64,000 nt of DNA from an uncultured virus (IMG/VR IMGVR_UViG_3300031758_009234) (IMGVR_UViG_3300031758_009234:1-64000), one strand, 5' to 3'; shown: positions 10,527 to 63,365, counted from the first letter of the stretch. The notes: generated by a model from the sequence alone, not told the origin. A program made the numbers and translations.

Positions 10527-10700
10527 ATGGCTAAGAATGGGGATATAATTTTTCTTGAAAGAAGGCTTCAAGAATTATTAGAGAAGGAGGATTACGAAAG
10601 AGCTGCTATCGTAAAAAGATGGATTGATGAATTAACTATTTTTTACGATAAAAAAAAGAAAATTTTGGAAGATGATTTATCTAAAAACAAACAAAGATAA
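10527..10700 (+). CDS. small UVR-motif protein
   Basis: Not in the ORF track; MAKNGDIIFLERRLQELLEKEDYERAAIVKRWIDELT... Confidence 0.6.
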   Translation: MAKNGDIIFLERRLQELLEKEDYERAAIVKRWIDELTIFYDKKKKILEDDLSKNKQR

Positions 10701-10950
10701 TATAGTTTCAATTTCAAGAGAAAATATAAAAAGTCAACAAGATGAATTTCCTAGATACGTTGAATTTGTTGATAGTGTTATTATAGAAAGTTACGATTCA
10801 ATCGATACTTTGAAGTTTAAAGATATTAACCCTATAATTACAATAAACATAAATTCAACTATTCAATATAGAGTAGAGTACAAAGGTGATCCAGATGATT
10901 TTTTAAAATCAATTATTAGAGACAACAAACTAAACGATTTATTAAAATGA
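10672..10950 (+). CDS. hypothetical protein, C-terminal tag family
   Basis: Ends IIRDNKLNDLLK. Confidence 0.7.
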   Translation: MIYLKTNKDNIVSISRENIKSQQDEFPRYVEFVDSVIIESYDSIDTLKFKDINPIITININSTIQYRVEYKGDPDDFLKSIIRDNKLNDLLK

Positions 10951-11291
10951 TAAAAGGTAGAGTTCTTTATGATTCTGATATAAAAGATCATAATAAATTA
11001 GGAGTTTATGGTATTTTTGATACCAAAAAAGTAACTTGGGAATATTTTGTTATATCTTATATTTCTAAAAACAATGAAATATCATTAACGGCTGAAATAT
11101 GTACCTATGGAAATACAAAACCAACTTTTGATGATATTAAAAGATATGGGTTAAAAGTAAATGAAATTGAAGTTGGTAAAAAATTCATTTTAGATTATAA
11201 ATCTAAATGGGAAAGTGGATTAAATGTAACAACACAAGAAGATAGAGATAGAAAACTAAACGAAATTTTAGACAATGAGAACACTAACTGA
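10947..11291 (+). CDS. hypothetical protein, C-terminal tag family
   Basis: Ends DRDRKLNEILDNENTN. Confidence 0.7.
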   Translation: MIKGRVLYDSDIKDHNKLGVYGIFDTKKVTWEYFVISYISKNNEISLTAEICTYGNTKPTFDDIKRYGLKVNEIEVGKKFILDYKSKWESGLNVTTQEDRDRKLNEILDNENTN

Positions 11292-11526
11292 AATATACAA
11301 TAACAAATACGATGTAAGAGAATCAGAAATTCCTAGAGAGTTTTACAAAAGCTTTCAAGAATTCATGTTTGGATCAACTTGTTACAAAGACGATTCCTCT
11401 GGTGAGGATGAATTTGTTTATTACATATCAGATTTTAAAATGTGGTATAGACTTAACATAAAAGAAATAGAATTATACGAAAAAAGACAAGAAAGAGATG
11501 ATAAAATTAATAAATTATTAGATTAA
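11275..11526 (+). CDS. hypothetical protein, C-terminal tag family
   Basis: Ends ERDDKINKLLD. Confidence 0.7.
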   Translation: MRTLTEIYNNKYDVRESEIPREFYKSFQEFMFGSTCYKDDSSGEDEFVYYISDFKMWYRLNIKEIELYEKRQERDDKINKLLD

Positions 11527-11563
11527 TTTATATCATGATGTTACATGTTTTTATATATAGCTT

Positions 11564-12016
11564 ATGTATCAAGTATTTAAAATGATATTTACACAAAATT
11601 CATATGAATTGAACAATGAGTACTCAAAATTATCTGAGCACGAAAAAGAAACAATTGCAAATATTTTACCAGATGGTTATTTTGAATTTAATGATAAATT
11701 AGAACAATTTAATTTATTTTTGATAATAACTAAAGAAGATTTAGATAGATATGCTAAAATACTTGATGAAAATTTTATTCGTTTTAAATTAAAAAATATA
11801 ACTAAGGATCTTTTAAATGGACTAGACATTCAAGAACATTTAAAAGATTATATAAATCCTTTAAATAGACATCGATTCAATACCTTTAAAATGAAGTTAG
11901 AAGAATGGATAAATCAAAATTTAGACATAGATACTATTTTAGATAGAATAAATCAAATTGGTATTGAAAATCTAACTAAATTAGAAATAAAGTTTTTGGA
12001 TAATTATAAAGTTTAA
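11564..12016 (+). CDS. hypothetical protein with a C-terminal DUF6576-like helix pair
   Basis: LDIDTILDRINQIGIENLTKLEIKFLD. Confidence 0.6.
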   Translation: MYQVFKMIFTQNSYELNNEYSKLSEHEKETIANILPDGYFEFNDKLEQFNLFLIITKEDLDRYAKILDENFIRFKLKNITKDLLNGLDIQEHLKDYINPLNRHRFNTFKMKLEEWINQNLDIDTILDRINQIGIENLTKLEIKFLDNYKV

Positions 12017-12050
12017 TGTATATTTGTAAATAACTCTAAAAAAAAATATT

Positions 12051-12218
12051 ATGAAATCACTTTTTATTAAAGCATTAAGACCTGTTCTTCAAATTTACGC
12101 TAACTTCTTAATCACACAATTAGAAACTGATAATTTAGACTTATATGAACATTATATGTCACAAGCTGTTTTATTAGATTTCTGTGCAACTGAATACTAT
12201 GATATTTATTTAGACTAA
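12051..12218 (+). CDS. small hypothetical protein
   Basis: 55 aa MKSLFIKALRPVLQIYANFL...; follows a TAnnTTTG element and its stop overlaps the next start. Confidence 0.6.
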   Translation: MKSLFIKALRPVLQIYANFLITQLETDNLDLYEHYMSQAVLLDFCATEYYDIYLD

Positions 12219-12595
12219 TGAAAAAATTATACTTAGACGATTTAAGAATACCAAAAGACTCTATCGGATTTGTTCCAGATAATTTAAACCAATTTTATTG
12301 GGCTAACGACTGGACTATCGTTAGAAACTTTTGGGAGTTCTGTAATTATATCCAAAAGTTTGGATTACCAGACTTTATTTCTTTCGATCATGATTTAGCT
12401 GACGAACACTATGTTAGTGACGTTAACTATAATGATTATAAAGAAAAAACTGGATATGAGGCAGCAAAATGGTTAGTTGATTGGTGTTTTGATAACAAAA
12501 AATCATTACCAGATTTTGTTGTACATTCGGCTAATACTGTTGGTAAAGTAAATATTGAAAGTTATTTAAATAACGCTAAAAAACATTTACTATGA
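12218..12595 (+). CDS. cyclic-phosphate-processing receiver-like domain protein
   Basis: KLYLDDLRIP, ISFDHDLA, KTGYEAAKWL, VHSANTVG. Confidence 0.75.
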   Translation: MKKLYLDDLRIPKDSIGFVPDNLNQFYWANDWTIVRNFWEFCNYIQKFGLPDFISFDHDLADEHYVSDVNYNDYKEKTGYEAAKWLVDWCFDNKKSLPDFVVHSANTVGKVNIESYLNNAKKHLL

Positions 12596-14147: not shown

Positions 14148-14149
14148 TT

Positions 14150-14943: not shown

Positions 14944-15215
14944 TGAACAAGGAAATTATTGAACAGTATATACACGAATTATGTTATAAAAAATCATCAT
15001 CTGAAAATCCATATTTAGATGTCAAGGATCTTAAAATAAATAAAATTGCTATTTTAAATGATGTTGTTGAGACTGTTTACTATTTTAACTTAACAAGTCG
15101 AAAAGATCCTAATATAAAAATGGAAATAAAAGGACATCATAAATTCACAAAAAAAGATTTTATACCTTACTTGAGAGATAAAAGACTAGAAGATTTATTG
15201 AAATCCATAGACTAA
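14943..15215 (+). CDS. hypothetical protein, C-terminal tag family
   Basis: Ends YLRDKRLEDLLKSID. Confidence 0.7.
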   Translation: MNKEIIEQYIHELCYKKSSSENPYLDVKDLKINKIAILNDVVETVYYFNLTSRKDPNIKMEIKGHHKFTKKDFIPYLRDKRLEDLLKSID

Positions 15216-16594: not shown

Positions 16595-18511
16595 ATGAAG
16601 ATAAGAAAACTCGGAGATAAAAAATGGAAAGTATTGATTTTTCAAGGATCACCTAGAGATCCTGATACTTGTCCTAATATGGAATCAAAAACTCACAAAG
16701 TAATTGAGTATGTTATAGAAAAATGGTCTCCATTTTTAGAAATAAAAGTTATTGATTTATCTGTAAATAAATCTAAAAAACCAAATATACAACCTTGTAA
16801 GGGTTGTGTTTCAACTGCTGGCGGATTTCATTGTATCGCAGAAGGTGAGAGAGTTGAGACTAAATATGGATATAAAAAAATTGAAGATATCTTAATAGGA
16901 GATGAATTATCAACCGGAACCGTTTATAATTTTATGAAAACCGGTGATAATTCTATTATATATGAGGTTACAACAAGCGACGGAAGAAAAATAAAATTAA
17001 CTGATAATCATCCTATAAAAGTAATAAATCCTATTTACAAAAATAATAATAAAAAAAAACTAAAAGGATATACTGAAGAATGGATCGATGTTAAGAATCT
17101 AAAAACCGGTGATAGAATACCATTTAAATTTACTGGTGAATTTAAAGAAGATGAATCAAATTTAGATAAATATCTTTTATGTGGCTTATTATGGGGAGAT
17201 GGAGCGGTTCATCATAAAAGACTTAAATTATGTTATGATGTAAGAGATGAAATTCTAATTGAAAAACTATCTAATAATTTTAATATCTCAATTTCTGAGA
17301 AGGGAGTTATATCAAAAAATACCGAAGTTAAATGGATAAAATTTAATGACAATGAAACCAATTTATTTATCAACAATCTTATATTTGAAGAAAAAAACAA
17401 GAATATATATGATCGAAGAATTCCAGAATCCATAATGAATTCATCAAAAAGTCAAGTTTCTAATTTTTTAAATGGTTGGTTTGCTAGTGATGGATCAATT
17501 ATTAAAAGAAATAATAGAGGAAACGATTATTATGAAATAAATCTAACAAGTGTTAGTAAAGATTCTTTAAGAGATTGTCAATTGCTACTTTCTAAATTTG
17601 GTATAAAATCATCTATAACCTATTTGGATCATATAGAAACTTTTAGGTTTAATAAATTTATAAAAAGAGCATCTATGTTAGTTATAAGTGGCCTTAATGC
17701 TAATATTTTTATGGAAAAAATAGGAATATTTAATAAGGATTATAAATTTAAAAAAATTTCTTATAGAAAATCTAAAAATTATGACTATTATGGTAAAGTC
17801 GAAAAAATAGAAGAAATTGGTAGATCAAATGTTTATGATATATCTGTTTCAAAATCACATAAATTTATATGTGAAGGTATAGAAGTTCACAATTGTCACT
17901 TTCCTTGTAGTTGTTATTTCAAAGGGATGAAAGAACCTGATTTACTTTCAGAGTTAAATGTTTATGAATTACTACAAGAGGCTGATGCTTTTTTAGTATT
18001 TTCTCCAATACACTGGCACTCCTTATCATCACAAGTTAAAACTCTTTTTGATAGATTGGTCAGTGTTAATCAAACTCTTACAATTGATGATGCCAAGAAA
18101 CTAATGGGTTCTGATAATATTAAAAGATCAGAAGTTACTGGTAAGTTCGCTAAGTCTGGTAAATATGACAATCTTCTAAGAAATCATTTAGAAGGTAAAG
18201 TTGGTGGATTTTACGCACATGGTGATGACGGTGCTGATGATTATGAGGGTAAAGAATTACCAGAATCATATTCCGATGTATTTGATGATGGTTTTTCAAA
18301 TAATGCCAAAAATGTCGTAATGCCATTCGTAATGCAACTTAAATATTCTGGAGTTTGGGTTCCTGATAATTTAATAGAAACGTTTTATACAAATAAAAAT
18401 ATTAATTATTATGTAGCTAATAAGTTAAAGAATAAAGAACTTTATGATAGAGCCGATAATTTAATCAATAATCTTTTAGATTATTTAGATGAAAAAAATA
18501 AAGAAATATAA
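16595..18511 (+). CDS. flavodoxin-fold (NAD(P)H-dependent FMN reductase / iron-sulfur flavoprotein-like) protein interrupted by an intein
   Basis: QGSPR, PCKGC, ADAFLVFSPIHWHSLSSQVKTLFDRL, LEGKVGG. Confidence 0.85.
   Translation: MKIRKLGDKKWKVLIFQGSPRDPDTCPNMESKTHKVIEYVIEKWSPFLEIKVIDLSVNKSKKPNIQPCKGCVSTAGGFHCIAEGERVETKYGYKKIEDILIGDELSTGTVYNFMKTGDNSIIYEVTTSDGRKIKLTDNHPIKVINPIYKNNNKKKLKGYTEEWIDVKNLKTGDRIPFKFTGEFKEDESNLDKYLLCGLLWGDGAVHHKRLKLCYDVRDEILIEKLSNNFNISISEKGVISKNTEVKWIKFNDNETNLFINNLIFEEKNKNIYDRRIPESIMNSSKSQVSNFLNGWFASDGSIIKRNNRGNDYYEINLTSVSKDSLRDCQLLLSKFGIKSSITYLDHIETFRFNKFIKRASMLVISGLNANIFMEKIGIFNKDYKFKKISYRKSKNYDYYGKVEKIEEIGRSNVYDISVSKSHKFICEGIEVHNCHFPCSCYFKGMKEPDLLSELNVYELLQEADAFLVFSPIHWHSLSSQVKTLFDRLVSVNQTLTIDDAKKLMGSDNIKRSEVTGKFAKSGKYDNLLRNHLEGKVGGFYAHGDDGADDYEGKELPESYSDVFDDGFSNNAKNVVMPFVMQLKYSGVWVPDNLIETFYTNKNINYYVANKLKNKELYDRADNLINNLLDYLDEKNKEI
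16832..17893 (+). mobile_element. intein with LAGLIDADG homing endonuclease (354 aa)
   Basis: Starts CIAEG, block B LTDNHP, LAGLIDADG-like LCGLLWGDG and FLNGWFASDG, ends VYDISV..HN followed by Cys+1. Confidence 0.93.
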
Positions 18512-19523: not shown

Positions 19524-19967
19524 ATGAATATTTATAATGAACTATCACTACTACTTCCTATAACAATAAAAATACTAGTAGCAACAATATGTGGATCACT
19601 AGTTGGTTGGGAAAGAGAAAAGAAAAATAAATTTGCTGGTCTTAGAACAAACCTTCTAATTTGTGTTGGATCAGCAATTTTTACTATTGGTTCCTTTTAT
19701 GCAGGAACTTTGTACAATGTTGACCCAACTCGTATCCTATCAACAATAGTTACTGGTATGGGATTTTTAGGTGGTGGTGTTATTATGAGAGATAATGATA
19801 AAATGATTGGTATAACAACCGCGGCTTTTATCTGGGTAATATCTGGAATTGGAATATTAGCTGGAATGGGTTTAGTTCTTATACCTATAATTTTAACAAT
19901 AGGACTTTTAATAGTCACTAGATATTTTGAAAAAGTAGAAAGATATATAAGAAATGATAGAAATTGA
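19524..19967 (+). CDS. mgtC: MgtC/SapB family membrane protein
   Basis: GWERE..AGLRT, DPTRI..IVTGMGFLGGGVI, GITTAA. Confidence 0.92.
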   Translation: MNIYNELSLLLPITIKILVATICGSLVGWEREKKNKFAGLRTNLLICVGSAIFTIGSFYAGTLYNVDPTRILSTIVTGMGFLGGGVIMRDNDKMIGITTAAFIWVISGIGILAGMGLVLIPIILTIGLLIVTRYFEKVERYIRNDRN

Positions 19968-20461: not shown

Positions 20462-21055
20462 ATGGAAAAATTAGAATTAAGGATGTATGGATTCGTGCCA
20501 TATAACATTAGTGAAATACAAAAAGGAATACAATTTGGACACACCGTAGTTGAATATGGATTAGTAAATCATTTAGATAATGATTACTTAAATTGGGCTA
20601 AGTATAATAAAACATTTATTATTCTTAATGGTGGTACCTCAAACCACTCTGTTGATAGATATAGAGAAGAAGCTTTCAATAAAGGTTGGAGAGAAGATGA
20701 AACTTATGTTGGATCAATGGAAACAATTAAAACCACTTTAGAAGAAAATGATGTTAAGATTGCTACTTTCTACGAACCAGATTTAAATGATATGTTATCT
20801 GGTATTTGTTTTATTGTGGATGAAAGAGTTTTTAATAAGAAATACTTAGGTCTTGGAGATTGGATTGTTGAAAACTATGGTGATATGATTATGGATAATC
20901 ATGGTTTTGGATTCAATGTTTCAAGATTAGAAAAACAAATAAAGTATTCCGAGATACCAAAAGAACAAAAAATCTATCAAAAATGGGTTGAGTACATTGG
21001 TGGTGAAAAGAATGTATTTCTTAGAGACTACTTATCAAAATTTAGATTAGCATGA
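20462..21055 (+). CDS. peptidyl-tRNA hydrolase 2 (PTH2)-like phage protein
   Basis: RMY..KGIQFGH, TFIILNGG, FYEPDLNDMLSGICF. Confidence 0.6.
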   Translation: MEKLELRMYGFVPYNISEIQKGIQFGHTVVEYGLVNHLDNDYLNWAKYNKTFIILNGGTSNHSVDRYREEAFNKGWREDETYVGSMETIKTTLEENDVKIATFYEPDLNDMLSGICFIVDERVFNKKYLGLGDWIVENYGDMIMDNHGFGFNVSRLEKQIKYSEIPKEQKIYQKWVEYIGGEKNVFLRDYLSKFRLA

Positions 21056-21399
21056 CAACTTGGTTAAAAATAGAAGATAATATTTTCGAGATTATTAAAT
21101 CTGAACATCAATTCACTATTGATAATAGTTGGACTTCTAGTTTTTTTTCAATAGATACTAAATCTAATCCAACTTATTTTGATATAATACTTAATTACTA
21201 TTCGAGTAAAAAAGTTTTTGATTGGGAAGATAATAAATCAAAGGGGTTTTCAGCTAGTATAAAAACGATGGATATTTTTGATAATATTTTATCTTTTACA
21301 ATAAAGAGTAAAGAGTGGGGTATCAAGGATAAAGCTTATGAAAGAAACGAAAGATTAGAACAAATACTACCAGAAGAAAAAACTTCTGATGAAAAATAA
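21052..21399 (+). CDS. hypothetical protein, C-terminal tag family
   Basis: Ends ERNERLEQILPEEK... Confidence 0.65.
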   Translation: MTTWLKIEDNIFEIIKSEHQFTIDNSWTSSFFSIDTKSNPTYFDIILNYYSSKKVFDWEDNKSKGFSASIKTMDIFDNILSFTIKSKEWGIKDKAYERNERLEQILPEEKTSDEK

Positions 21400-21439: not shown

Positions 21440-23629
21440 ATGGGAAAAACTAATAAAGACAATCAGTATTACAAAAACTTACCTGATGTGAGAATGGCTA
21501 TTGAAGATGATGATGATGATGATAAGACATTCTCTTCATCTTCTAAGAAATCTGATACTAAATCTAAAACTCCAGTTTTAGATACATATAGTCGTGATTT
21601 GACTAAAATGGCTGAAGAGGGTAGATTAGACCCTATCGTAGGTCGTGAAAAAGAAATTGAAAGAGTTTCACAAATTCTTTCTCGTAGAAAGAAAAACAAT
21701 CCAATTTTAATTGGTGAACCAGGTGTTGGTAAATCTTCAATTGCTGAAGGATTAGCACTTAGAATTGTTCAAAGAAAAGTATCTAGACTTCTTTTTAATA
21801 AAAGAGTTGTTATGCTTGACTTAGCATCTATGGTCGCTGGTACTAAATACCGTGGACAATTTGAGGAAAGAATTAAGGCTTTAATGGCTGAAATGGAAAA
21901 AAATCCTGATGTCATCCTTTTCATTGATGAAATTCATACTATGATTGGTGCTGGTGGAGCTTCTGGATCAATGGATGCTTCCAATATGTTTAAACCAGCT
22001 TTAGCAAGAGGTGAAATTCAAATCATTGGTGCTACTACTTTAGACGAGTATAGAAAACACATTGAAAAAGATGGAGCGTTAGAAAGACGTTTTCAAAAAG
22101 TTCAAGTTGAACCTGCTACTCCAGAAGAGACAATGATTATCATTGGTAATATTAAAGATAAATATGAGTCACATCACAATGTTACTTACACACCGGAAGC
22201 AATTAAGGCTTGTGTTGATTTAACTTCTCGTTATATGACTGATAGATTTTTACCAGATAAGGCTATTGATGCTATGGATGAAGCTGGATCAAGAGTTCAT
22301 ATTTCAAATATTGTTGTTCCAAAAGAAATTACAGATATTGAAAACAAAATATTGGAGATTAAGGATCAAAAACATGATGTTATCAGATCTCAAAAATACG
22401 AAGAGGCTGCTAAATTAAGAGATACTGAGAGAAAGTTGAACGATGCTTTGGAAAAGGCTAGAAAAAACTGGGAAGAAGAATCATCTAAAAATCGTCAAAT
22501 TGTAACTGAGGATAATGTAGCAGAGGTTGTATCAATGATTACAGGTATTCCTTTACAAAAAGTAAGTGAAAAGGAAAACAATAGACTTGCTAAAATGGGT
22601 CAAGAAATTGCTGGTAAAGTAGTTGGTCAAGATGAAGCTGTTAAGAAAGTAGTTAGAGCTATTCAAAGAGGTAGAGTTGGTATGAAAGATGCTAACAGAC
22701 CTGTATTCAGTGGTATGTTGATTGGTAACTCTGGTGTTGGTAAAACTGAGTTGGCTAAACAAATCGCTAAATATCTATTTGACTCTGAGGACTCTTTAAT
22801 TAGATTGGATATGTCTGAATATATGGATAAAATTTCAATTTCTAAAATTCAAGGTTCAGCTCCAGGATATGTTGGTTATGAAGATAGTAACGTTCTTGAT
22901 AGAATTAGAAGAAAACCTTATTCTGTTATTCTTTTTGATGAGATTGAAAAAGCAAATCCTGAGGTATTTAACTTATTCTTACAAATGTTAGATGATGGTC
23001 ACATGACTGATTCACACGGTAGAAAAGTAAGTTTTAAAAATTGTATTATTTTAATGACTTCTAACGTAGGTACAAGACAAGTTAAAGATTTTGGTACTGG
23101 AGTTGGTTTCTCTACTAAAACAAGAGAAAGTCAAAATGAAGAACACATTAAGGCGATTTTAGATAAAGAGTTGAAAAATAAATTTGCTCCTGAGTTTATC
23201 AATAGATTAGATGACATTATCTACTTTAGAGATTTAGGTAAAAATGAAATCTTGAAAATTGTTGATTTAGAATTAAATAAAACAATTAAGAGAGCATCTG
23301 ACATTGGTTTCCCAATTGAAATCACAGATGAATTAAAAGATCATCTTGTTGAAGTTGGTTATGATCCTAAATTTGGTGCTAGACCTTTAAAGAGAGCTAT
23401 TCAAAGATGGGTTGATGATATAATTACTGATTATATTATTGAAAATAATCCAGAAGAAGGAACAAAATTCTTATGTGATTATAATAAAGAGGATGAACAA
23501 TCTTTTATTAAACCTATCCACACACCAAGTGAAATTAAAGAGTTACAAGAACATTTACTACCAGAAGTAAAGAATGATGATGTTAAGGTTGAGAAACCAA
23601 AACGAACAAGAAAAAAGAAAGATGAATAA
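21440..23629 (+). CDS. clpC: ClpC/ClpB-like AAA+ unfoldase lacking the N-terminal Clp repeat domain
   Basis: GEPGVGKS, FIDEIH, UVR-type middle domain KYEEAAKLRD, GNSGVGKT, GVGF (IGF-loop-like), FGARPLKR. Confidence 0.9.
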   Translation: MGKTNKDNQYYKNLPDVRMAIEDDDDDDKTFSSSSKKSDTKSKTPVLDTYSRDLTKMAEEGRLDPIVGREKEIERVSQILSRRKKNNPILIGEPGVGKSSIAEGLALRIVQRKVSRLLFNKRVVMLDLASMVAGTKYRGQFEERIKALMAEMEKNPDVILFIDEIHTMIGAGGASGSMDASNMFKPALARGEIQIIGATTLDEYRKHIEKDGALERRFQKVQVEPATPEETMIIIGNIKDKYESHHNVTYTPEAIKACVDLTSRYMTDRFLPDKAIDAMDEAGSRVHISNIVVPKEITDIENKILEIKDQKHDVIRSQKYEEAAKLRDTERKLNDALEKARKNWEEESSKNRQIVTEDNVAEVVSMITGIPLQKVSEKENNRLAKMGQEIAGKVVGQDEAVKKVVRAIQRGRVGMKDANRPVFSGMLIGNSGVGKTELAKQIAKYLFDSEDSLIRLDMSEYMDKISISKIQGSAPGYVGYEDSNVLDRIRRKPYSVILFDEIEKANPEVFNLFLQMLDDGHMTDSHGRKVSFKNCIILMTSNVGTRQVKDFGTGVGFSTKTRESQNEEHIKAILDKELKNKFAPEFINRLDDIIYFRDLGKNEILKIVDLELNKTIKRASDIGFPIEITDELKDHLVEVGYDPKFGARPLKRAIQRWVDDIITDYIIENNPEEGTKFLCDYNKEDEQSFIKPIHTPSEIKELQEHLLPEVKNDDVKVEKPKRTRKKKDE

Positions 23630-24422: not shown

Positions 24423-24463
24423 AAACTTTGTTATAAAAACAAATATAAAAAATAAAAAATAAT

Positions 24464-25830: not shown

Positions 25831-25831
25831 A

Positions 25832-27411: not shown

Positions 27412-27414
27412 AAG

Positions 27415-28227: not shown

Positions 28228-28234
28228 AAAGATT

Positions 28235-31477: not shown

Positions 31478-32153
31478 AGTTTATATAAATGTTGCTGTGA
31501 TGGGTTCTGTTAATGAAGTTTTGACAAACCTATTAAATAGAATTAAAGATAGTAGTTTATACGAAAATTGTGATGTAATCAATTTAGTCATTAATGGTGA
31601 TATAAACTTATTAAAGGTGAATTTAGATGATCCTAAATATAAAATTTGGAATAAATATAAAGATACTTCATATAATGAGTTTCCAACTTTAGATCTAATT
31701 TGGAAACATTCACAAGACGAAGATTTCAATGTTCTTTATTTACACACAAAAGGAGTAAGTAGAAATCATCCTTTTATAACGGATTGGACTAATTACTTAT
31801 CTTATTTTAGTATAAATAAATGGGAAGATAGATTAGAAGAGTTAAAAGAGAATGATTGTACTGGTGTTAATTTAAGAGGTAATCCAGAAGATATCAAATT
31901 TCATCCTATGTATTGGGGATATGGTAAAGCCCCTAAACATTATTCTGGTAATTTTTGGTGGAGTAAATCTTCACATATTAAAAATTTATGTAATCCAATC
32001 ACTTGGATGCCTAATAATGATTATCTGAAATGGAGAATGATGTGTGAAATGTGGGTTTGTCAATTACCAGAATCAAAATACTATAATGCTCATACATCAG
32101 ATGTTGATCATTACCAAAATCCATATCCAGGAGAATTATATGAAACAGTTTAA
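31470..32153 (+). CDS. putative glycosyltransferase-like protein
   Basis: EFPTL, YLHTKGVS, HYSGNFWW motifs typical of proteins in viral glycan clusters. Confidence 0.6.
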   Translation: MNRVYINVAVMGSVNEVLTNLLNRIKDSSLYENCDVINLVINGDINLLKVNLDDPKYKIWNKYKDTSYNEFPTLDLIWKHSQDEDFNVLYLHTKGVSRNHPFITDWTNYLSYFSINKWEDRLEELKENDCTGVNLRGNPEDIKFHPMYWGYGKAPKHYSGNFWWSKSSHIKNLCNPITWMPNNDYLKWRMMCEMWVCQLPESKYYNAHTSDVDHYQNPYPGELYETV

Positions 32154-32301
32154 TCCCAGTGATGAGTTATCGAAGTTACTTTCTCAAGAATTAGCTAAGT
32201 CTATTGATAAAGAAATTATGAATGAACTATTTAGACTTTTTCCAAAAGTAACAATGAGTAGAAGAAATAAAATTAATAAAATATACAAAAAAGGTGATTA
32301 A
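32140..32301 (+). CDS. small protein with a capsid-like helix and the C-terminal tag
   Basis: MKQFNPSDELSKLLSQELAKSIDKEIMNEL...RRNKINKIYKKGD. Confidence 0.6.
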   Translation: MKQFNPSDELSKLLSQELAKSIDKEIMNELFRLFPKVTMSRRNKINKIYKKGD

Positions 32302-39109: not shown

Positions 39110-39352
39110 TTAATTTTGTTGGTTAATTCCCATAATCTTTTCAGATAAATATTCTGTATAAGCAATACTACCCAAACTCTCTTTTGTGTATTGAGAATAA
39201 TCTGGCTTATACCATCTACTATCAAAATAATTATTATGTGAATTATCAATTACTTCACCCCTAAAAATTTTTAAGATTTTTTGAGCTCTTAAAAAAGAAT
39301 TATATCCAACATCATTTCTATATGGATCAACACTTATATAATATGGGTTCAT
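39110..39352 (-). CDS. hypothetical protein with an internal tag-like motif
   Basis: ISVDPY..LRAQKILKIF. Confidence 0.55.
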   Translation of the reverse strand: MNPYYISVDPYRNDVGYNSFLRAQKILKIFRGEVIDNSHNNYFDSRWYKPDYSQYTKESLGSIAYTEYLSEKIMGINQQN

Positions 39353-40497: not shown

Positions 40498-40512
40498 ATC
40501 TATTTTTATTTT

Positions 40513-40743: not shown

Positions 40744-40753
40744 ATTGTATTTT

Positions 40754-41398: not shown

Positions 41399-41421
41399 AA
41401 TGTATATATTAATTTTAATTA

Positions 41422-42230: not shown

Positions 42231-42233
42231 AAT

Positions 42234-42524: not shown

Positions 42525-42534
42525 ATTCTATATA

Positions 42535-43258: not shown

Positions 43259-43612
43259 TCAATTGAGTGGTTTTATTATTTCTTCTATTATTTCATTTCT
43301 CGATTCAGACTTAATCATATTAAGTAAATCCCCATATGTAATTTCTTCACTTAATAATTCATCTTTGTAATAAATATCAAACTCAGCAAAACTAGCAGTG
43401 TCTCCATCCATTCTTGGTAATTCACCATCATATCCTCTATACGAAACCATTGTAAGTCCTCTGAAAAATCCCCAACCACTTGAAACTAATAGATTTTGAT
43501 TCCATTCAGTGTAATCAGATTCTATTGTAACTTCGGTTCCACCAACATAATATTCATCTGGTTTTGCAATGAATTTAAAGTCCTTTAAAAAATCAATCTT
43601 AGAAATCATCAT
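43259..43612 (-). CDS. hypothetical protein, C-terminal tag-like
   Basis: Ends [14 protein letters not shown]. Confidence 0.6.
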
Positions 43613-45257: not shown

Positions 45258-45295
45258 ATTTTATATATTAAAAAATTATCCGTATGTTTGCTATT

Positions 45296-51681: not shown

Positions 51682-51855
51682 TTATTTTGAATATATTTTT
51701 CTAATTTTAGATTGTCTATTTGAAATTATCCATCGTCTCAATTCTTCAATGAACAAATTATCTGGGTATATTCTACCATTATTCCTATTCATTCGATCAA
51801 ATTTTTGTAAAACTCCGTGTAAAATATATTTACCATCAACTATTTCTACTTTCAT
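51682..51855 (-). CDS. small protein with a prohead-protease-like fragment and the C-terminal tag
   Basis: Not in the ORF track; [61 protein letters not shown] overlap with dnaJ. Confidence 0.65.
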
Positions 51856-52922
51856 ACTTTAAATGTATTTGAGTTTTTAAACTTCTCTAAAATCATTCTT
51901 TCATCAAGTGGAATATCTTTTGGTATTTTCAAATTAAATTTTATATAAAGATCTCCTAAACCATAATTTAAGTCTGGAATACCTTTACCTGAAATTCTAA
52001 TTGTTTTCCCGTGTTCTGTTCCAGCTTCAACTAAAACCGGTATATCACCATGTGGTGTTGATACAGTTATATTATTACCACAAAGAGCATCTATAACAGA
52101 TATTGTTTTTTCTACAACTATATTATTACCTTCTCTTTTGAATGAGAAGTCTTGAGCTTCTTCTATAATAATAAAAAGATCACCTGGTATTCCATTTCTA
52201 ACATCATTTCCATTACCATTCATTTTCAACTGCATTCCATTTGAAACACCTGCTGGTACTTGAATATCAACTACTTGTTCTTGTAAAGTAGTACCATCTC
52301 CATGGCAATGATTACACTTATTGTGAATTTGTTCACCAGAACCTCCACAATCTGGACAATGTGTTTGAGTTCTTACTTGTCCAAATGGTGTATTTTGAAC
52401 AACAACTCTTTGTCCTGTTCCATTACAAACTAAACATTCTCTTACATCAGAACCTCCTTTTCCATCACAAGGATTACATTTTACTTGTCTTCTGTATTTT
52501 AATTTTTTAGTTGTTCCTTTAAGTATCTCATCAATATTAACAACAACTTTAATTCTTAAATCACCACCTTTTTTAGTTCTTTGTCTTTGTTGTTGTCTTC
52601 CACCAAAAGGATTACCACCAAAGATATCACCAAACTGTGAAAATATATCATCCATTGAAAATCCGTGACCACCACCAAATGGATTACCTCCTCCAAATGG
52701 ATTACCACCAGTTGAACCAAATCTATCATAACTCTGGCGTTTAGAAGGATCGCTAAGAGTTTCATAAGCTTCAGCCGCCTCTTTAAATTTAGCCTCTGCT
52801 TCTGGATTATTAGGATTTTTATCTGGATGAAACTGCATAGCCATCTTACGATAAGCTTTTTTAATTTCATCATCAGTTGCTCCTTTATTAACTCCTAAAA
52901 TAGTATAATAGTCTTTATTCAT
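51852..52922 (-). CDS. dnaJ: DnaJ chaperone
   Basis: J domain with HPD, G/F region, four CxxCxGxG repeats. Confidence 0.96.
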
Positions 52923-52934
52923 TTTTTAGATTTT

Positions 52935-53261
52935 TTATTTTAATATATTATTTAGTAATATGTCTCTTTTAATAGATTTAAGAGGTTCATTAAATCTTAT
53001 TTTTGTATTTGAATTATAATCAAACCAAAATGAATCATTTTCATAAGTAGTCCAATTATAATCTTTTTTTGTATGAAATCTTAAAATTGGTAGTTTATTC
53101 ATAATATCTCTACATAGTTCAATGATTTTATCTTCATCAAACTCTTCCTCATCTATTTTATTAACCTCATCACAAAAGTAGTCCATTACTTCACCAACAG
53201 TCTCATTAACTACTCTTAAATAGTTTTTATCTGTTCTAGTACTTTCGATATACCAATTCAT
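52935..53261 (-). CDS. hypothetical protein, C-terminal tag family
   Basis: Ends KRDILLNNILK. Confidence 0.65.
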   Translation of the reverse strand: MNWYIESTRTDKNYLRVVNETVGEVMDYFCDEVNKIDEEEFDEDKIIELCRDIMNKLPILRFHTKKDYNWTTYENDSFWFDYNSNTKIRFNEPLKSIKRDILLNNILK

Positions 53262-53794
53262 TTTAATGTCTTTTTAAGTTTCAAATCTCTTATCTCTAAT
53301 TTAATTTCATCATATGTTTTATTTCTACAATTAGAAATCATTTTGTTTATATAGTTTTGACAAACTAAGTTTAAAGTTTCTATACCCATATCTAAATACT
53401 TAAACTCTATTAAACAATTTTTAATTTTTGGTAGAAAGTCAACTAAATAGTTGATAAAATCATCAACATCCCAATATAGTTGAAATAATTCTAGCTTTTT
53501 ATCACCATATTCCGAGAAATTAAATAAAGTTGGTTTGTTTATAAAAACCATAGACCAAGTTTTTCTAATGGCTGGTATGATAAGTACTTCTAGTTCATCC
53601 TCATCATCACCAATTTTACCAGATAATAAACTAAAAACCTCAATTCTATTATCTAAAACATATTCTAAATCAGATTTAAGATTTGATTTTAATTCATCAT
53701 CAACACCAGTAAGCATAGAATCAACAAGACTTTGTTTATATAAGTCTTGTTGTAATAATTCTATAAAGCTTTTTTTGTTTACTGGTAAGTTCAT
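53258..53794 (-). CDS. hypothetical protein, C-terminal tag family
   Basis: Ends EIRDLKLKKTLK. Confidence 0.65.
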   Translation of the reverse strand: MNLPVNKKSFIELLQQDLYKQSLVDSMLTGVDDELKSNLKSDLEYVLDNRIEVFSLLSGKIGDDEDELEVLIIPAIRKTWSMVFINKPTLFNFSEYGDKKLELFQLYWDVDDFINYLVDFLPKIKNCLIEFKYLDMGIETLNLVCQNYINKMISNCRNKTYDEIKLEIRDLKLKKTLK

Positions 53795-54321
53795 TATTCA
53801 CCTAATATGATTTTAGGATATCTAAATGGTTTACCATCTAATGTATATCCCTTACTAACAACATCAACAATTTTCTTTTCACCAATTGGTAAAATTGATA
53901 TAACTTCGTGTAAATCAGTATCATACTCTTCAGTTTGAATAGTTTCAATTCCTTGACCTTTTAAAAACTTTTCAATTTTAGAAGCGATTAACTCAACACC
54001 TTCTCGAGCTGAATCATCTTTAATATTTTTGATTGCTAAAGAAATATCAGAGTCCATATCCAAAATAGAAGTAATCATAGAAACTTTTGTATTATTTCTT
54101 AATTCTTCTTTTTCTTTGATAACTCTTTTTTTATAGTTATCAAATTCAGCAGCTAATCTTAAATAATTATTATTTGATTCTTTTAATTGTTCTTCTAAAT
54201 GAGAAACGTGTAGTCTTGGATTATCTTCTAATACAATTTCTTCATTCTTACCAGTTAAGTCAAGACCAACTTTTTGATCATCAATTTTCATACTCTCTAC
54301 TTCAATCTTTTTATCTTCCAT
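53794..54321 (-). CDS. grpE: GrpE nucleotide exchange factor
   Basis: YLRLAAEFDNYKKR, DLHEVI, VSKGYTL. Confidence 0.93.
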   Translation of the reverse strand: MEDKKIEVESMKIDDQKVGLDLTGKNEEIVLEDNPRLHVSHLEEQLKESNNNYLRLAAEFDNYKKRVIKEKEELRNNTKVSMITSILDMDSDISLAIKNIKDDSAREGVELIASKIEKFLKGQGIETIQTEEYDTDLHEVISILPIGEKKIVDVVSKGYTLDGKPFRYPKIILGE

Positions 54322-54896: not shown

Positions 54897-55073
54897 ATGA
54901 AGCATAAAATCAAAACACCAAACGGAGTAGGAACTCTAGAGAAAATATACGCTAGTGAATTGGGGTTTTTAATGGTTAGAGTTTACTTTCCTGATACAAA
55001 ATCATTTATAACATATAATGTTGATAAGTTAGAAAATTTTTTAGAAAATACACAATTAAAATTAGAAAAGTAG
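54897..55073 (+). CDS. small hypothetical protein
   Basis: MKHKIKTPNGVGTLEKIYASELGFLMVRVYF... Confidence 0.6.
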   Translation: MKHKIKTPNGVGTLEKIYASELGFLMVRVYFPDTKSFITYNVDKLENFLENTQLKLEK

Positions 55074-56168: not shown

Positions 56169-56813
56169 ATGAGTAAATACCCAAGAACATATCATTTACC
56201 TTTCTCACCCGGTACTACCAATGATGATAGAATATCTGAGAGTGTTAAATCTATTTTGGGTATTGATATTATCATAACCGAAAAGTTAGATGGATCTAAC
56301 TCATCGATGATAAATGAGGGTGTCTTTGCTAGATCACATATAGATTTTTCTAAAAATCCATGGGATAATGAAGTTAGACAACTACACGAAATAAAAGTAA
56401 AAGGTAATTTAGAAGATGATGTTTTTTTATTCGGTGAGAATATGGAAGGCATTCATTCAATAGAATATACAAATTTAAAATCATACTTTTATTTATTTGG
56501 TGTTAGAGATAATAACATCTGGACACCTTGGAGTGTGGTTGAAGAATATTCTTACTTATTGGATTTACCACTTGTACCAGTTTTATTTAAAGGTATTGTA
56601 AATACCGAAAAAGAATTAAAAGACTTAGTTATGGGTTTTGTAACAGAACAATCTGAATTAGGTGGATCAAGAGAAGGTATTGTCGTAAGAAATGCTGGTG
56701 TGTTTCATAATGATAATTTCTCGGATAATGTAATGAAATGGGTTAGAAAAGGTCATGTTCAGACAGATGAACATTGGACCAAGAATTGGAAAAAATCAAA
56801 TATAAATTATTAA
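56169..56813 (+). CDS. RNA ligase (Rnl2-like adenylyltransferase domain)
   Basis: TEKLDGSN (motif I), FGEN, EGIVVR, KWVR. Confidence 0.85.
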   Translation: MSKYPRTYHLPFSPGTTNDDRISESVKSILGIDIIITEKLDGSNSSMINEGVFARSHIDFSKNPWDNEVRQLHEIKVKGNLEDDVFLFGENMEGIHSIEYTNLKSYFYLFGVRDNNIWTPWSVVEEYSYLLDLPLVPVLFKGIVNTEKELKDLVMGFVTEQSELGGSREGIVVRNAGVFHNDNFSDNVMKWVRKGHVQTDEHWTKNWKKSNINY

Positions 56814-57791: not shown

Positions 57792-59015
57792 ATGTACAAT
57801 ATACCAACATATAACGAAGCTGTCAAACTAACTCAAGGTAAAAGATATGTACCTGAGATAGATCAATATTTAGACGCTGCTTTCTACGAGGCTAAACTTG
57901 TAGTTGATGGGTATAATGTATCTATATTCAACTATCGTTTAGCAACTTACAATGACTTTAAATACAACGATGCTTTTGAATTAAGAGGTTTAGTTTACGT
58001 CTTTAATGAAGATGGTTCTGTGTATAAATCATATAGATTGTTACATAAATTTTTCAACTTAAACCAAGTTGAAGAAACTCAATACTCTTTAGTAAAAGAT
58101 CGAGTTGTTAAATCTGTTTTCAATAAAGAAGATGGTTCTATTGGTTCTTTCATAAAATTACCAAACGGAAATGTTGTTGCTAAATCTAAAATGTCTTTTG
58201 AATCAGACCAAGCTTATGGTATGAACAAAATATACAACTCTAACGCAGATATAAAAAGATTTGTTGATTGGTCATTAGATAACGATTTAGTTGCTGTATT
58301 TGAGTATGTGGCTCCACACAACCGTATAGTTTTAAAATATGATAAAGAAGAATTAATCTTATTAAGATTAAGAAGAAACTCTACTGGTGAATACTTAAAC
58401 CTCCACGATTATTCAGATGTTATAGGTGATTTAAAAACTGCTGAGTCTTTTGATCTATCATTAGATGAATTGGTTGAATTGGCTAAAACTGTTGAAGGTG
58501 TTGAAGGTTGGGTAGTTGACTTAGATGGTTTATTTGTTAAAATAAAAACTGTTTGGTATTGTGAAAGACATGGTCTTTTAACAGAAGACTTGTATCGTGA
58601 AAACATACTAGTTAAATACATATTAGATGATAAAATAGATGATGTCTTAGGTCAAATCCCAGAAGATGAAAAAGAAGCACACGCTCGTATAGAAAAAATA
58701 ATAGCGGCTGTCTCTAAGGCAGTTAAAATGAAAGTTGATTCTATATTAGAAGATTGGAAAGTGTTTCAAACTATGGCTGATGGTAAAGATTGGACTGGTG
58801 ATTTAAAAGATCAACTAATGAGAAAGTCTTATGCTATGAAGTATAAGAAAACTAAAAATTTTGGAGCTGTGATGTCTATGGCGAAAGGTAACGATGTCTA
58901 TGATATAGTTACTGAACAAATAGCTAAGGAAACTTTTAGATTACAAAATGCGAGAGCGTTTTTATTTCAAATAGATCCAACTCTAAACTTTAAAGATGGT
59001 GAAATAGAAGATTAA
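57792..59015 (+). CDS. T4 RNA ligase 1-like
   Basis: ELRGLV, HKFFNLN, KEDGS (motif I), FEYVAPHNRIV, EGWVV, VKIKT. Confidence 0.9.
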   Translation: MYNIPTYNEAVKLTQGKRYVPEIDQYLDAAFYEAKLVVDGYNVSIFNYRLATYNDFKYNDAFELRGLVYVFNEDGSVYKSYRLLHKFFNLNQVEETQYSLVKDRVVKSVFNKEDGSIGSFIKLPNGNVVAKSKMSFESDQAYGMNKIYNSNADIKRFVDWSLDNDLVAVFEYVAPHNRIVLKYDKEELILLRLRRNSTGEYLNLHDYSDVIGDLKTAESFDLSLDELVELAKTVEGVEGWVVDLDGLFVKIKTVWYCERHGLLTEDLYRENILVKYILDDKIDDVLGQIPEDEKEAHARIEKIIAAVSKAVKMKVDSILEDWKVFQTMADGKDWTGDLKDQLMRKSYAMKYKKTKNFGAVMSMAKGNDVYDIVTEQIAKETFRLQNARAFLFQIDPTLNFKDGEIED

Positions 59016-60259: not shown

Positions 60260-60289
60260 CAATGTATAAATAAAAAACAAAAATAAAAT

Positions 60290-62170
60290 ATGGCAAAAGA
60301 CGTAATTATTGGAATTGACTTAGGAACAACTAACTCGTGTGTAGCAGTAGTTGAAGGTGGTGAACCAATCGTAATCAGTAATGCTGAAGGTAAAAGAACA
60401 ACTCCTTCTATTATTTCATTTACAGAAAATGATAGAAAGATTGGTGATCCAGCAAAAAGACAAGCGGTTACTAACCCTAAAAAAACTATCTACTCAATTA
60501 AAAGATTTATTGGTAAAGATTTTAATGTTTGTAAAGATGAGGTAACTAGAGTACCTTATGAAGTAGTTTCAAACGGAGCTAATGTACCTACTGTTAAAAT
60601 CGATGATAGAAATTATACTCCACAGGAGTTATCAGCAATGATTCTTCAAAAGATGAAGAAAACAGCTGAAGATTATTTAGGATATGAAGTGAAAAGAGCG
60701 GTTATTACCGTACCAGCTTACTTCGGTGATGCTGAGAGAACTGCAACTATTGAGGCTGGTGAAATCGCTGGTTTAAAAGTTGAAAGAATTATCAACGAAC
60801 CTACAGCAGCGGCTTTAGCGTATGGTTTAGATAAGAAAAACACAGACTCTAAAATTTTAGTATTTGACTGTGGTGGTGGTACTCATGACGTTTCTGTGTT
60901 AGAGATTGGTGATGGTGTATTTGAAGTAAAATCTACTGACGGTGATACTCACTTAGGTGGTGACGACTTTGATAATGCAATTATTACTTGGATGGTTGAA
61001 GAATTCAAATCTGAAAACTCTATGGATTTATCAAAAGATCCTATGGCTTTACAAAGATTGAAAGATGCGGCTGAAAAAGCTAAAATTGAATTATCTTCTA
61101 CATCTGAAAGTGAAATTAACTTACCTTACATCACAGCTAGAGACGGAATGCCTCTTCACTTTGTTAAGAAATTAACTAAGGCTAAATTTGAACAATTAAC
61201 TTCATCTTTAGTTGATAGAGCTATCAGTTGTGCTAAATCAGCTTTGAAAAACGCAGGTTTAAAACCAGCTGATATTGACGAAGTTATCTTAGTAGGTGGT
61301 TCTACAAGAATTCCAGCAATTCAAGATGCTATTGAAAGTTATATTGGTAAGAAACCAAACAAATCCGTGAACCCTGATGAAGTTGTTGCTTTAGGTGCGG
61401 CTATTCAAGGAGCTGTTTTAACCGGTGGTATTACTGACGTTTTACTTTTAGATGTTACTCCACTTTCTTTAGGTATTGAAACAATGGGTGGTGTGTTTAC
61501 TAAATTAATTGAAGCAAACACTACTATTCCAACTAAGAAAAGTGAAACATTCTCAACAGCATCCGATAATCAACCTTCAGTAGAATTACACGTTTTACAA
61601 GGTGAAAGAGCGATGGCTAAAGACAACCGAACTTTAGGTCGTTTCCACTTAGATGGTATCATGCCAGCTCCAAGAGGAATTCCTCAAATCGAGGTGACTT
61701 TTGATATAGATGCTAATGGTATCTTATCTGTACACGCTAAAGATAAGGCAACTGGTAAAGAAAATAAAATCCGTATCGAAGGTGGTTCTCAATTAACTAA
61801 AGAAGAAATTGAGAAAATGAAAGCTGAGGCTGAGGCAAATGCTGAAGCAGATGCTAAAGAAAGAGAGTTAGTTGATAAAATAAACTCAGCAGACTCAATG
61901 ATTTTCCAAACCGAAAAACAAATTAAAGAGTTTGATGAAAAATTAACAGCTGATGATAAGAATGCTTTGAACGCTGACCTTGACGAATTGAAGAAAGCTC
62001 ATTCCGATAAAGATGTTCAAAGAATTGATGAATCAATCAGTAAGTTAAACTCGACTTGGAATACAATTTCAACTAAGTTGTATGAACAAAGTCAAACTGA
62101 ACAAACAACAGAAAATACTTCCAGTGGTAATGATGGAGTAGATGATGTTGATTTTGAAGAAGTAAAATAA
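60290..62170 (+). CDS. dnaK: DnaK/Hsp70
   Basis: [38 protein letters not shown]. Confidence 0.98.
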
Positions 62171-62229
62171 TTTAAAAAAGTCCTTGAGAAATCAAGGACT
62201 TTTTTATTATATTTATATAAAATTATTAT

Positions 62230-62619
62230 ATGGAAACAAGAACCGCTAAATTAGCAGCAACCGCTCTTATCTTTAACGAAGATAAATCTAAACTATTAGG
62301 TGTATCAAGAAAAGATGATACAACTAAATTTGGATTACCTGGAGGTAAAGTAGATGTTGGTGAAACATTATATGACGCTTTAGTTAGAGAATTAAAAGAA
62401 GAAACAGGATTAGATGTAAACTCAGCAAAACCAATTTTCTTTAGAGAAGATGGTGATTTTGTTGCTGTTGTTTATTTAGTAACTGATTGGTCTGGTGAAG
62501 TTTCAACAACCGAAAAGGGAGTTGTTAAGTGGATTACTTTTGAGGATTTAAAACACGGTGCTTTTTCTGAATATAATACTATGTTAGAAGAACATTTAAG
62601 GTTTATCAAACTTTTATAA
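62230..62619 (+). CDS. NUDIX hydrolase
   Basis: [23 protein letters not shown]udix box. Confidence 0.92.
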
Positions 62620-62658
62620 TAAAAAATTTAATATATAATAAAAAATTATTATATTTAC

Positions 62659-63153
62659 ATGAAATACATCAAAAGATTTAAAGTCAACGAAAATATGAGC
62701 GGTAAGAAAATTGTTTACGTAGATATGGACGACACTCTTTGTGATTTTACAGGTCCTTTTAGAAGTGGTCAACAAAATACAGAGGCTTCAGAGGATGAAC
62801 CAATTAGAAAGTGGCCTCAGTCAAAAGTTGGTTTTTTCTTAGGTTTACAACCACTACCAGGAGCAATCGAAGGAATGAATACCTTGATGTCTAAGTATGA
62901 TGTTTGGATTTTAACTAGACCATCTATTAAAAACATTCACTGTTATACCGAAAAAGCTGAATGGATTAAGAAATATTTTGGTGAAAAAATGTTAGAGAAT
63001 ATGATTATTTGTCCAAATAAATCCCTTGTTAAAGGAGACTACTTAATTGATGATGATACAAGACATGGTCAAGTTGAATTTGAAGGAGAACATATTCATT
63101 TTGGTAAGGAAAAATTTCCTAATTGGGATTCAGTTATAGAATACTTAATGTAA
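62659..63153 (+). CDS. 5'(3')-deoxyribonucleotidase (HAD) with an N-terminal leader
   Basis: MKYIKRFKVNE then VYVDMDDTLCDF, EKAEWI, GDYLIDD. Confidence 0.88.
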   Translation: MKYIKRFKVNENMSGKKIVYVDMDDTLCDFTGPFRSGQQNTEASEDEPIRKWPQSKVGFFLGLQPLPGAIEGMNTLMSKYDVWILTRPSIKNIHCYTEKAEWIKKYFGEKMLENMIICPNKSLVKGDYLIDDDTRHGQVEFEGEHIHFGKEKFPNWDSVIEYLM

Positions 63154-63365
63154 TGTTTATTTATTGTATAAATAATCGAGGTTTGGAGAAATATCTAACC
63201 ATCAATAAAAAATATGAAAATATTGAAGATTTTGTAGAAATTGATGAAGATTTTAACTGGTATAGAATTATCAATGATAAAAACATATCAGGAACATATG
63301 ATAAATCAAGATTTGTGACAGTTGATAAGTGGAGAGAAATTCAATTAAATAAATTATTAAAATAA
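63153..63365 (+). CDS. small protein, C-terminal tag family
   Basis: Ends WREIQLNKLLK. Confidence 0.65.
   Translation: MFIYCINNRGLEKYLTINKKYENIEDFVEIDEDFNWYRIINDKNISGTYDKSRFVTVDKWREIQLNKLLK

Follow-up and report, generated by a model that had tools for sequence, protein, structure and literature searches.

F-box and BC-box adaptor libraries are found in eukaryotes, poxviruses and Legionella, and we know of no F-box-like adaptor library in bacteriophages. Sliding clamps are bound by short C-terminal peptides, examples being the tails of T4 gp43, gp55 and gp33 and the PIP box, while the capsid targeting sequence (CTS) of T4 is N-terminal and is removed when the head matures. The T-even CTS is described as a short conserved tag on highly diverse, unrelated counter-defence proteins that share one destination, the prohead core (PMC3012670). 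Gp53 of phage SPO1 is reported to be an early, adaptor-like protein of 25 kDa that docks on the host ClpCP and redirects it (PMC6873191). Here we consider a window of 64,000 nucleotides, bases 1-64000 of a 76.9-kb uncultured virus record (IMGVR_UViG_3300031758_009234, hereafter G000; G+C 28%), in which small and mutually unrelated proteins carry at or near their C-terminus a nine-residue motif, hereafter the tag, with the consensus R-[DEN]-x-K-[LI]-x-x-[IL]-[LGI] and often K, L or I at position -4.

The tag is a real and portable helix that is undescribed in the literature searched. Full-text searches found no description of it, with the limit that supplements and subscription papers could still mention it, and the words 'motif' and 'C-terminal' are absent from the main text of a paper that discusses LR745206 and LR756502 (PMC9723777). 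We hypothesise that it is a docking helix read by a protein of the Bacteroidota host and that it collects early accessory proteins of the phage at that partner, a proposal to which we give roughly even chances.

The neck protein encoded in the window is 79% identical to that of LR745206.1 (635 kb) and 75% identical to that of LR756502.1 (642 kb), both uncultured megaphages, with farther relatives in LR756504.1 and LR756501.1 (~40%) and in PAU and pT24 (24%). The nearest cellular relatives of the ClpC encoded in the window are mostly from Flavobacteriales and Bacteroidia (64-71% identity), which suggests a Bacteroidota host for the contig and, probably, for the megaphages.

A conserved tag at the ends of unrelated proteins

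A sequence-only reading of the window had proposed a dispersed family with a shared C-terminal pattern, R-x-x-(K/R)-(I/L)-x-x-(I/L). All 12 of the nine-residue stretches that it quoted are in frame in the open reading frames named (the coordinates given were the low ends of the genes, not the positions of the motif), and 11 of them are C-terminal, ending 1-9 residues before the stop. The pattern taken literally fits seven of these 11 and not the other four, and the core common to all is R at position 0 with hydrophobic residues at +4, +7 and +8. The twelfth stretch, RAQKILKIF, is probably not a member; it scores -1.2 bits on the matrix described below and lies 50 residues from the end of its protein.

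The proposed C-terminal excess over shuffled proteins was confirmed for the 116 proteins of the 76.9-kb contig, using three null models and 2000 shuffles: the pattern of the earlier reading occurs in the last 22 residues of 10 proteins (null means 0.27-0.62, maximum 4) and the strict core ends 13 (null means 0.07-0.31, maximum 3). As these patterns were chosen after the proteins had been seen, the independent test is the same regular expression applied to other genomes. Fixed on the contig, it ends 87 of 618 proteins in the related megaphage G003 and 137 of 941 in LR745206.1, where 1.4 and 2.6 are expected, and in outgroups it ends 1 of 1014 in LR756501.1, 1 of 292 in PAU, 0 of 289 in pT24 and 0 of 220 in 140 kb of LR756500.1. 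A position-specific matrix trained on G000, G003 and LR745206.1, with a cut-off of 11 bits, raises the tagged counts to 118 in G003 and 170 in LR745206.1 and leaves a clean gap in the scores. Genes were called with a custom codon-score caller, by which some short genes are missed.

Ten of the 11 C-terminal cases in the window score 13-31 bits. The remaining one, RQSKIRKIY, reaches 6.4 bits; it falls in a variant class, R-[KRQ]-x-K-I-x-x-I-[FY] (class II, as against the main class I). The tag lies in the last 8-29 residues of its protein or internally, mostly with 0-2 residues after the motif (none in half of the LR756504.1 cases), and tails of up to ~20 residues occur. Neither the PDB (at E<=10) nor a set of 1.84 billion representative proteins gave a match to the tag profile, which has 30 columns and thus little power. 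The tagged proteins of the window, with the doubtful internal case last, are as follows.

10672..10950, + strand: 92-aa protein, tag RDNKLNDLL at 10918-10944, matrix score 28.0
10947..11291, + strand: 114-aa protein, tag RDRKLNEIL at 11244-11270; tagged LR745206.1 homologue with 50% identity
11275..11526, + strand: 83-aa protein, tag RDDKINKLL at 11494-11520; tagged LR745206.1 homologue with 52% identity
14943..15215, + strand: 90-aa protein, tag RDKRLEDLL at 15174-15200
21052..21399, + strand: 115-aa protein directly 5' of clpC, tag RNERLEQIL at 21343-21369
32140..32301, + strand: 53-aa protein, variant tag RRNKINKIY at 32260-32286; a helix resembling part of the major capsid protein
43259..43612, - strand: 117-aa protein, tag RNEIIEEII at 43274-43300
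51682..51855, - strand: 57-aa protein after dnaJ, variant tag RQSKIRKIY at 51691-51717
52935..53261, - strand: 108-aa protein between grpE and dnaJ, tag RDILLNNIL at 52941-52967; conserved, with its tag, throughout the clade
53258..53794, - strand: 178-aa all-helical protein after grpE, tag RDLKLKKTL at 53264-53290, within the helix of residues 161-177
63153..63365, + strand: 70-aa protein, tag REIQLNKLL at 63333-63359; both of the two relatives found keep the tag
39110..39352, - strand: 80-aa protein with the internal RAQKILKIF, probably a non-member

Protein-level selection, helical form and modularity

The tag is selected at the level of the protein. Codon position 2 holds most of the information, the Leu/Ile and Arg codon families are all used, synonymous codons within the tag roughly follow genome usage (Arg AGA 72% vs 78% elsewhere), and 324 of 341 strong six-frame matches are in frame within called genes, most of the uncalled or out-of-frame ones ending at a stop, like missed genes. 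The tag might instead be the by-product of a DNA or RNA element at gene ends, such as a promoter, a ribosome site or a recombination repeat, and the mild over-use of A-ending codons at +7 and +8 (ATA 69% vs 45%, with an excess of TTA too) and the many tagged genes that overlap the start of the next gene would agree with this; however, the position-2 information, the use of all codon families and the nearly complete restriction to the reading frame largely refute such an origin, which is almost certainly wrong.

In both of the proteins folded with AlphaFold2 the tag forms a helix after the body, with low confidence (~58) in the 21052 protein and high confidence in the 53258 protein. On a helical wheel positions -4, 0, +4, +7 and +8 share one face, and the alignment of an invariant arginine with a hydrophobic ridge would be easier to reconcile with a specific groove than with a membrane. 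A MinD/FtsA-type amphipathic anchor in the membrane would also be C-terminal and basic, but lipid binding needs neither the invariant arginine at 0 nor lineage-specific residues at +1 and +3, and the tag offers three or four aliphatic positions with almost no aromatic residue; we regard an anchor as highly improbable. Transmembrane helices show no clear enrichment among tagged proteins (9/120 vs 16/324 and 9/179 vs 45/562).

The bodies to which the tag is joined were said to be mutually unrelated, and they are: once tags are removed, the 13 bodies of the contig fall into 13 families, the 118 of G003 into 118 and the 170 of LR745206.1 into 169. Matches to Pfam (8 of 116) and PHROGs (14 of 127 tagged G003 proteins, E<=0.001) all fall on bodies. 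Between genomes the tag is retained in 44 of 45 and 47 of 51 homologous bodies, and several bodies exist untagged in other lineages, one of them in Vibrio phage 2.275.O. In DinG-like and UvsW-like helicases the tag is inserted in loops, in tag-rich lineages only, and is absent at that place in LR756504.1, LR756501.1, PAU and pT24 (where aligned). The earlier picture of a constant helix joined to variable domains is therefore upheld, with a tag that is kept in orthologues and gained by bodies untagged elsewhere.

Among individual bodies, residues 1-91 of the 21052 protein, for which 14 tagged relatives were aligned, are predicted to adopt a tail-tube/Hcp-like beta fold followed by the tag helix at residues 94-105 (Foldseek probability 1.0, best E 1.1e-3, TM ~0.5-0.6), a likeness that searches by sequence had not picked up; a search of the ESM Atlas with this protein returned unnamed viral clusters only, at 0.80, which is chance level. 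A fold search with the 53258 protein gave a best Z of 6.0 and nothing distinctive. The slot after dnaJ (51682-51855 in the window; also L013, L015, L017, L019, L020, L025 and LR745206.1) is occupied by a variant-tagged mini-protein with a body that varies from genome to genome: either of two distinct pieces of the protease, or a further short, repeat-like body. It looks as though bodies had been exchanged while the tag stayed.

Tagged genes lie next to one another more often than expected (58 adjacent pairs vs 23 and 32) and are densest near the ends of two long records. Clustering of this kind would suit a helix that associates with itself, giving avidity to small domains or bringing all tagged proteins into one assembly, as has been proposed for SHOCT-type C-terminal domains; no partner gene would be needed, and this would fit every phage group in which the tag occurs. 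Yet its ~9-13 conserved residues are short for an autonomous oligomer, judging from what is known of coiled coils, and the helix is net basic with an invariant arginine in the middle of its hydrophobic face. We see a slim chance for self-association. The sequence-only reading had allowed for a shared localisation or oligomerisation signal in place of an adaptor, which may yet apply.

Dialects among megaphages

The tag is carried by ~9-20% of the genes of tag-rich megaphages, up to 184 genes per genome. A dialect-neutral core ends 124 of 618 proteins in G003, 184 of 941 in LR745206.1, 50 of 539 in G004 and 108 of 922 in LR756504.1, and matches to the DNA pattern exceed those to a control in LR756502.1 (50 vs 3), G012 (21 vs 1) and G009 (24 vs 7). 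In the LR756504.1 dialect +1 is mostly Lys and half of the cases end at +8, while LR756501.1 has 13 of 1014 core ends (5.6 expected) and a small R-T-x-L-I-D-K-[IV]-L set. The dialects keep R0, +4, +7 and +8 and vary at +1 and +3 by lineage, as expected of a ligand that tracks its partner.

LR756501.1 (L136-L172) has another tag, DPYGEE-x-W, which occurs N-terminally, internally and C-terminally on 94 of 1014 proteins and is enriched on capsid, portal, protease and sheath fragments. Small carriers of it match core-protein profiles in 10 of 74 cases, against 9 of 668 non-carriers (p=2e-6). This second tag suggests that the labelling of many accessory proteins is a general megaphage strategy in which the labels are exchangeable.

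The lineage-specific dialects would also be expected if the reader were another protein of the megaphage, such as a sliding clamp or a scaffold of the replication factory, with small phages exploiting or jamming it in co-infection. Two SF2 helicases have gained the tag, the C-terminus of a split DNA polymerase has the core spacing, Val standing at +4 (LR745206.1 130568 = L082:10568-11992; G004 365414), and the hydrophobic residues are spaced much as in T4-type clamp-binding tails and PIP boxes. The i, i+3, i+4 spacing is, however, generic for amphipathic helices, the C-termini of RNase H, clamp loader and gp41 helicase are untagged, and no clamp gene was identified with PF09116 (gp45-type clamp) in five records, where the clamp may be too diverged and where the sensitivity is doubtful, as PAU, with a relative of the loader, was also negative. 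The small phages described next encode a portal, terminase, tape measure and holin of their own, and none of their tagged bodies recurs in the megaphages. On balance a megaphage-encoded reader is improbable.

Small tagged phages and the host side

Pattern scans of viral contigs returned mostly members of the megaphage clade, together with 31 loci of little or no similarity to megaphages. We picked 16 of these, which have small-phage-like gene sets or are short contigs without megaphage matches, the other 15 being megaphage variable regions, pieces of G009, one other large phage and single chance matches. In the 16 loci 45 of 282 genes (16%) are tagged, with the same consensus, and 29 remain without the seed genes where 2.1 are expected; none of the 45 tagged bodies matches a megaphage protein at E<1e-3. 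Portal genes were found in three loci scanned from these siphovirus-type small phages, L531 also having terminase, tape measure and holin, and three genomes, G014, G015 and G013, are 28.9, 31.0 and 28.8 kb long and 93, 100 and 98% complete. By the putative capsid protein, the cultured phages closest to them are Nonlabens P12024L/S (25%), and by terminase they are Parabacteroides/Bacteroides phages (33-34%), so that both phage groups appear to point to Bacteroidota hosts. Genomes of ~30 kb leave little room for a shared chaperone hub, and the simplest common reader would be a host protein.

Phylogenetic profiling left ~140 shared core genes, a number too large to point to any one of them as the reader. 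Among the matches listed for the DNA pattern in prokaryote genomes, hits were scattered and no examined locus above 2 kb had two tagged genes. No tag was seen by eye in the listed part of L714, a relative of the small group. An untagged 58-aa protein of the window (54897-55073) has a small-phage homologue (L577:11156-11317, E 2e-11) with a degenerate stretch resembling the tag at its end.

Promoters, timing and the CTS-like family

Among unit-heading genes, a late-type ATATATA lies upstream of 13/129 with the tag, 71/75 from a CTS-like family and 647/1477 of the rest; for the host-like TAnnTTTG, which we take to be the Bacteroidota -7 element, the corresponding counts are 48/129, 5/75 and 260/1477. 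The tagged set would thus be early and non-virion. Members of the CTS-like family have an MK(H/Y)L(K/R)xF(N)E-type motif at the N-terminus and ATATATA upstream, and are otherwise unrelated (3457-4651, 40174-42897, 48027-49618 and 62659-63153 in the window); the protein motif presumably resembles the T4 capsid targeting sequence. The N-terminal MKxLKxF-type motif and the tag never meet on one protein by matrix (~23 expected) and do so in 3 of 494 cases by a loose pattern.

Early-type promoters and exclusion from the CTS-like proteins would be consistent with a degron by which a host protease shortens the life of early and possibly toxic proteins, as would the C-terminal position with 0-2 residues after most motifs. 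Against a degron stand the tails of up to ~20 residues, the internal copies in conserved helicases and other proteins, and tagged proteins of 35-41 aa that consist of little beyond the tag; we give it a small chance.

The chaperone neighbourhood and phage ClpC

The tagged genes had been noted beside proteostasis genes, and as a description of their positions in the window this is accurate. The context genes are as follows.

10527..10700, + strand: 57-aa UVR-motif open reading frame before three tagged genes; no homologue in the other genomes examined
21440..23629, + strand: ClpC-type ATPase without N-domain, the protein with the cellular relatives given above
51852..54321, - strand: grpE (53794-54321), two tagged genes and dnaJ (51852-52922)
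60290..62170, + strand: DnaK

From this the sequence-only reading had suggested that the tag docks on the phage N-domain-less ClpC, or on DnaK/DnaJ/GrpE, as part of an F-box-like set of substrate adaptors. In five tag-rich megaphages (G000, G003, LR745206.1, G004 and LR756504.1, examined as whole or partial records) the Clp ATPase lacks its N-domain, in the tag-poor LR756501.1 it is full-length, and LR756500.1 and PAU have no Clp match; moreover, orthologous tagged genes stay beside clpC and within grpE-dnaJ across the clade, which also encodes ClpP, ClpS and UVR proteins. However, a phage ClpC is not necessary, as the complete 640-kb G009 shows the tag pattern and the ~29-31-kb phages are tagged, with no Clp ATPase match in G009 or in G013 (DnaK was not searched in G009 or the small phages). 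Nor is it sufficient: N-domain-less ClpC-type ATPases like that at 21440-23629 are common in viral contigs (L423-L470; 44 of 49 loci outside the clade), and in those loci, which are partly redundant and close kin, 2 of 1023 genes are tagged. Adjacency is itself unspecific and is best read as inherited synteny of orthologues: DNA ligase, SbcC and others with no link to chaperones are among the 11 of 84 core genes that have a tagged neighbour in all three genomes. We consider docking on the phage's own machinery very unlikely, and the idea of F-box-like substrate adaptors would survive only in the form of adaptors for a host protease. A complex prediction with the tag alignment, the phage ClpC core and a Flavobacteriales ClpC N-domain gave a score of 0.00, the fold of the partner being itself uncertain, and counts neither for nor against such docking.

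UVR-motif proteins are encoded at 373-693 and 10527-10700 of the window, at 196916 and 389600 in G003 and at 296085 in LR745206.1, and one LR745206.1 and one G001 protein join a ClpC-M-domain-like UVR with the tag. A likeness of the tag to the second helix of UVR was rejected by eye, the spacing being off by one residue.

Cargo and possible decoys

The 51682 body resembles an N-terminal piece of a prohead protease (E ~0.02), and the capsid likeness of the 32140 protein is weak (E 0.0055 for Gp23, which is below the cut-off, and 0.027 for the capsid profile of its own clade). Tagged bodies of the relatives likewise include pieces that resemble capsid, protease and polymerase, and class II proteins match core-protein profiles in 6 of 24 cases at E<=0.05, with 0 matches when reversed. 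Untagged fragments of core proteins also exist. Such stand-alone pieces, with or without a tag, are numerous in G001, G003, LR745206.1, LR756504.1 and LR756501.1, derive from the major capsid protein, portal, protease, sheath and terminase, and are general to these megaphages. Capsid, portal, tail tube, polymerase and helicase are reported to trigger bacterial STAND receptors (PMC13581612). A decoy role would therefore be plausible for cut-down core-protein cargo, a minority of the tagged set.

Other genes of the contig

A flavodoxin/FMN-reductase-like gene at 16595-18511 is split by an intein with a LAGLIDADG domain. Two genes for cyclic-phosphate-processing receiver domains and two for RNA ligases (12218-12595, 45284-45679, 56169-56813 and 57792-59015) possibly serve RNA repair against host nucleases. 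Positions 23697-32153 hold ~11 genes that by eye resemble glycosyltransferases, a methyltransferase and a sugar mutase, and MgtC-family, CYTH and 5'-nucleotidase (NT5C) genes lie at 19524-20442 and 62659-63153. Low-complexity repeats comprise SWGG-containing units (48653-49618) and Gly-Thr/Gly-Ala runs (32969-35098). Beyond the window, three adjacent genes at G000:66429-71231, which we take by eye to be a PrkA-YeaH-SpoVR unit, have a 39-aa variant-tagged open reading frame at their first junction.

A proposed mechanism

We propose that the tag is a portable docking helix of two to three turns, whose arginine and hydrophobic residues at +4, +7 and +8 would form one face that fits a single groove on a single partner, most likely encoded by the host, within the infected Bacteroidota cell. 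Added as a handle to many small early proteins and to loops of two helicases, it would gather host-takeover and anti-defence cargo at that partner, and a minority of the cargo, cut-down capsid, protease, polymerase and tail-tube folds, may act as decoys for pattern-recognition receptors. The occurrence of the tag in ~30-kb phages makes a host partner likely. For the partner itself our leading candidate, held tentatively, is the surface of a host AAA+ protease or chaperone, for example the ClpC N-domain; next, and rather unlikely, comes a DNA-associated hub such as the beta clamp. More speculatively, and on balance doubtfully, unrelated Bacteroidota phages may share a proteome-scale adaptor library in which the helix grips a host AAA+ protease or chaperone and at least a hundred variable bodies, among them the cut-down core-protein folds, capture host defence proteins for destruction or sequestration, DPYGEE-x-W being a swapped, non-homologous handle in a sister lineage.

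Several points weigh against the proposal of a host-encoded reader for early cargo. No host protein that bears the motif naturally turned up in 24 (E<=0.02) or 401 (E<=0.01) Bacteroidota genomes with a profile that finds 80 places in G003, so that the motif does not mark a common host family among those sampled. P12024L, the cultured relative of the small phages, is tagged in 0 of 58 genes; L714 (31 kb), related to them with 66% identity in the query protein, belongs to a Bacteriovoracaceae bin; and L259:7824-8363, in a 28.8-kb phage, matches the T4-type late sigma family and a megaphage homologue (E 1e-15), and small phages could exploit a megaphage-encoded reader in co-infection. Class I tags are not enriched for core-protein pieces (5/292 vs 25/757), and small proteins match eight core profiles in 10 of 481 tagged and 20 of 1986 untagged cases (p=0.06). 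The early and late roles given to the promoters are read from their motifs, and tags inside conserved helicases would fit a protease adaptor poorly.

A large share of megaphage genes are small orphans, and with one handle on 9-20% of the genes a single partner could give a common site of action to more than 100 unknown proteins per genome, for which the ~30-kb tagged phages offer small test cases. If the partner is a protease, phages would possess a programmable, library-scale means of redirecting bacterial proteolysis, and the tag would be a nine-residue tool for targeting proteins in Bacteroidota.

Comparison with known systems

The logic of the tag is like that of the T4 CTS, in that a short conserved element marks diverse and otherwise unrelated phage proteins, but the features that define the CTS are missing: the tag is C-terminal or internal, not N-terminal, its genes are seldom preceded by the late-type motif (13/129 vs 71/75 for the CTS-like family), it is nearly exclusive of the CTS-like motif, and it occurs on up to 184 genes per genome in two unrelated phage groups. 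Gp53 of SPO1 would be a precedent for redirecting a host Clp ATPase should the reader be host Clp; it is, however, one 25-kDa protein, whereas here a shared tag marks a library whose binding to Clp is putative and which does not co-occur consistently with a phage Clp ATPase. With clamp-binding peptides the tag shares the short C-terminal form, the unrelated carriers, hydrophobic residues at i, i+3 and i+4 and a polymerase tail that fits the spacing, and differs from them in its invariant Arg and Lys at +3, in carriers that are mostly small orphan proteins, and in its occurrence in small phages. F-box and BC-box libraries likewise join a variable domain to a constant short helix in more than 100 genes; the motif here is much shorter and its ligase or protease partner putative, but if the adaptor reading is true, the library would be a prokaryotic counterpart of the viral F-box arsenals.

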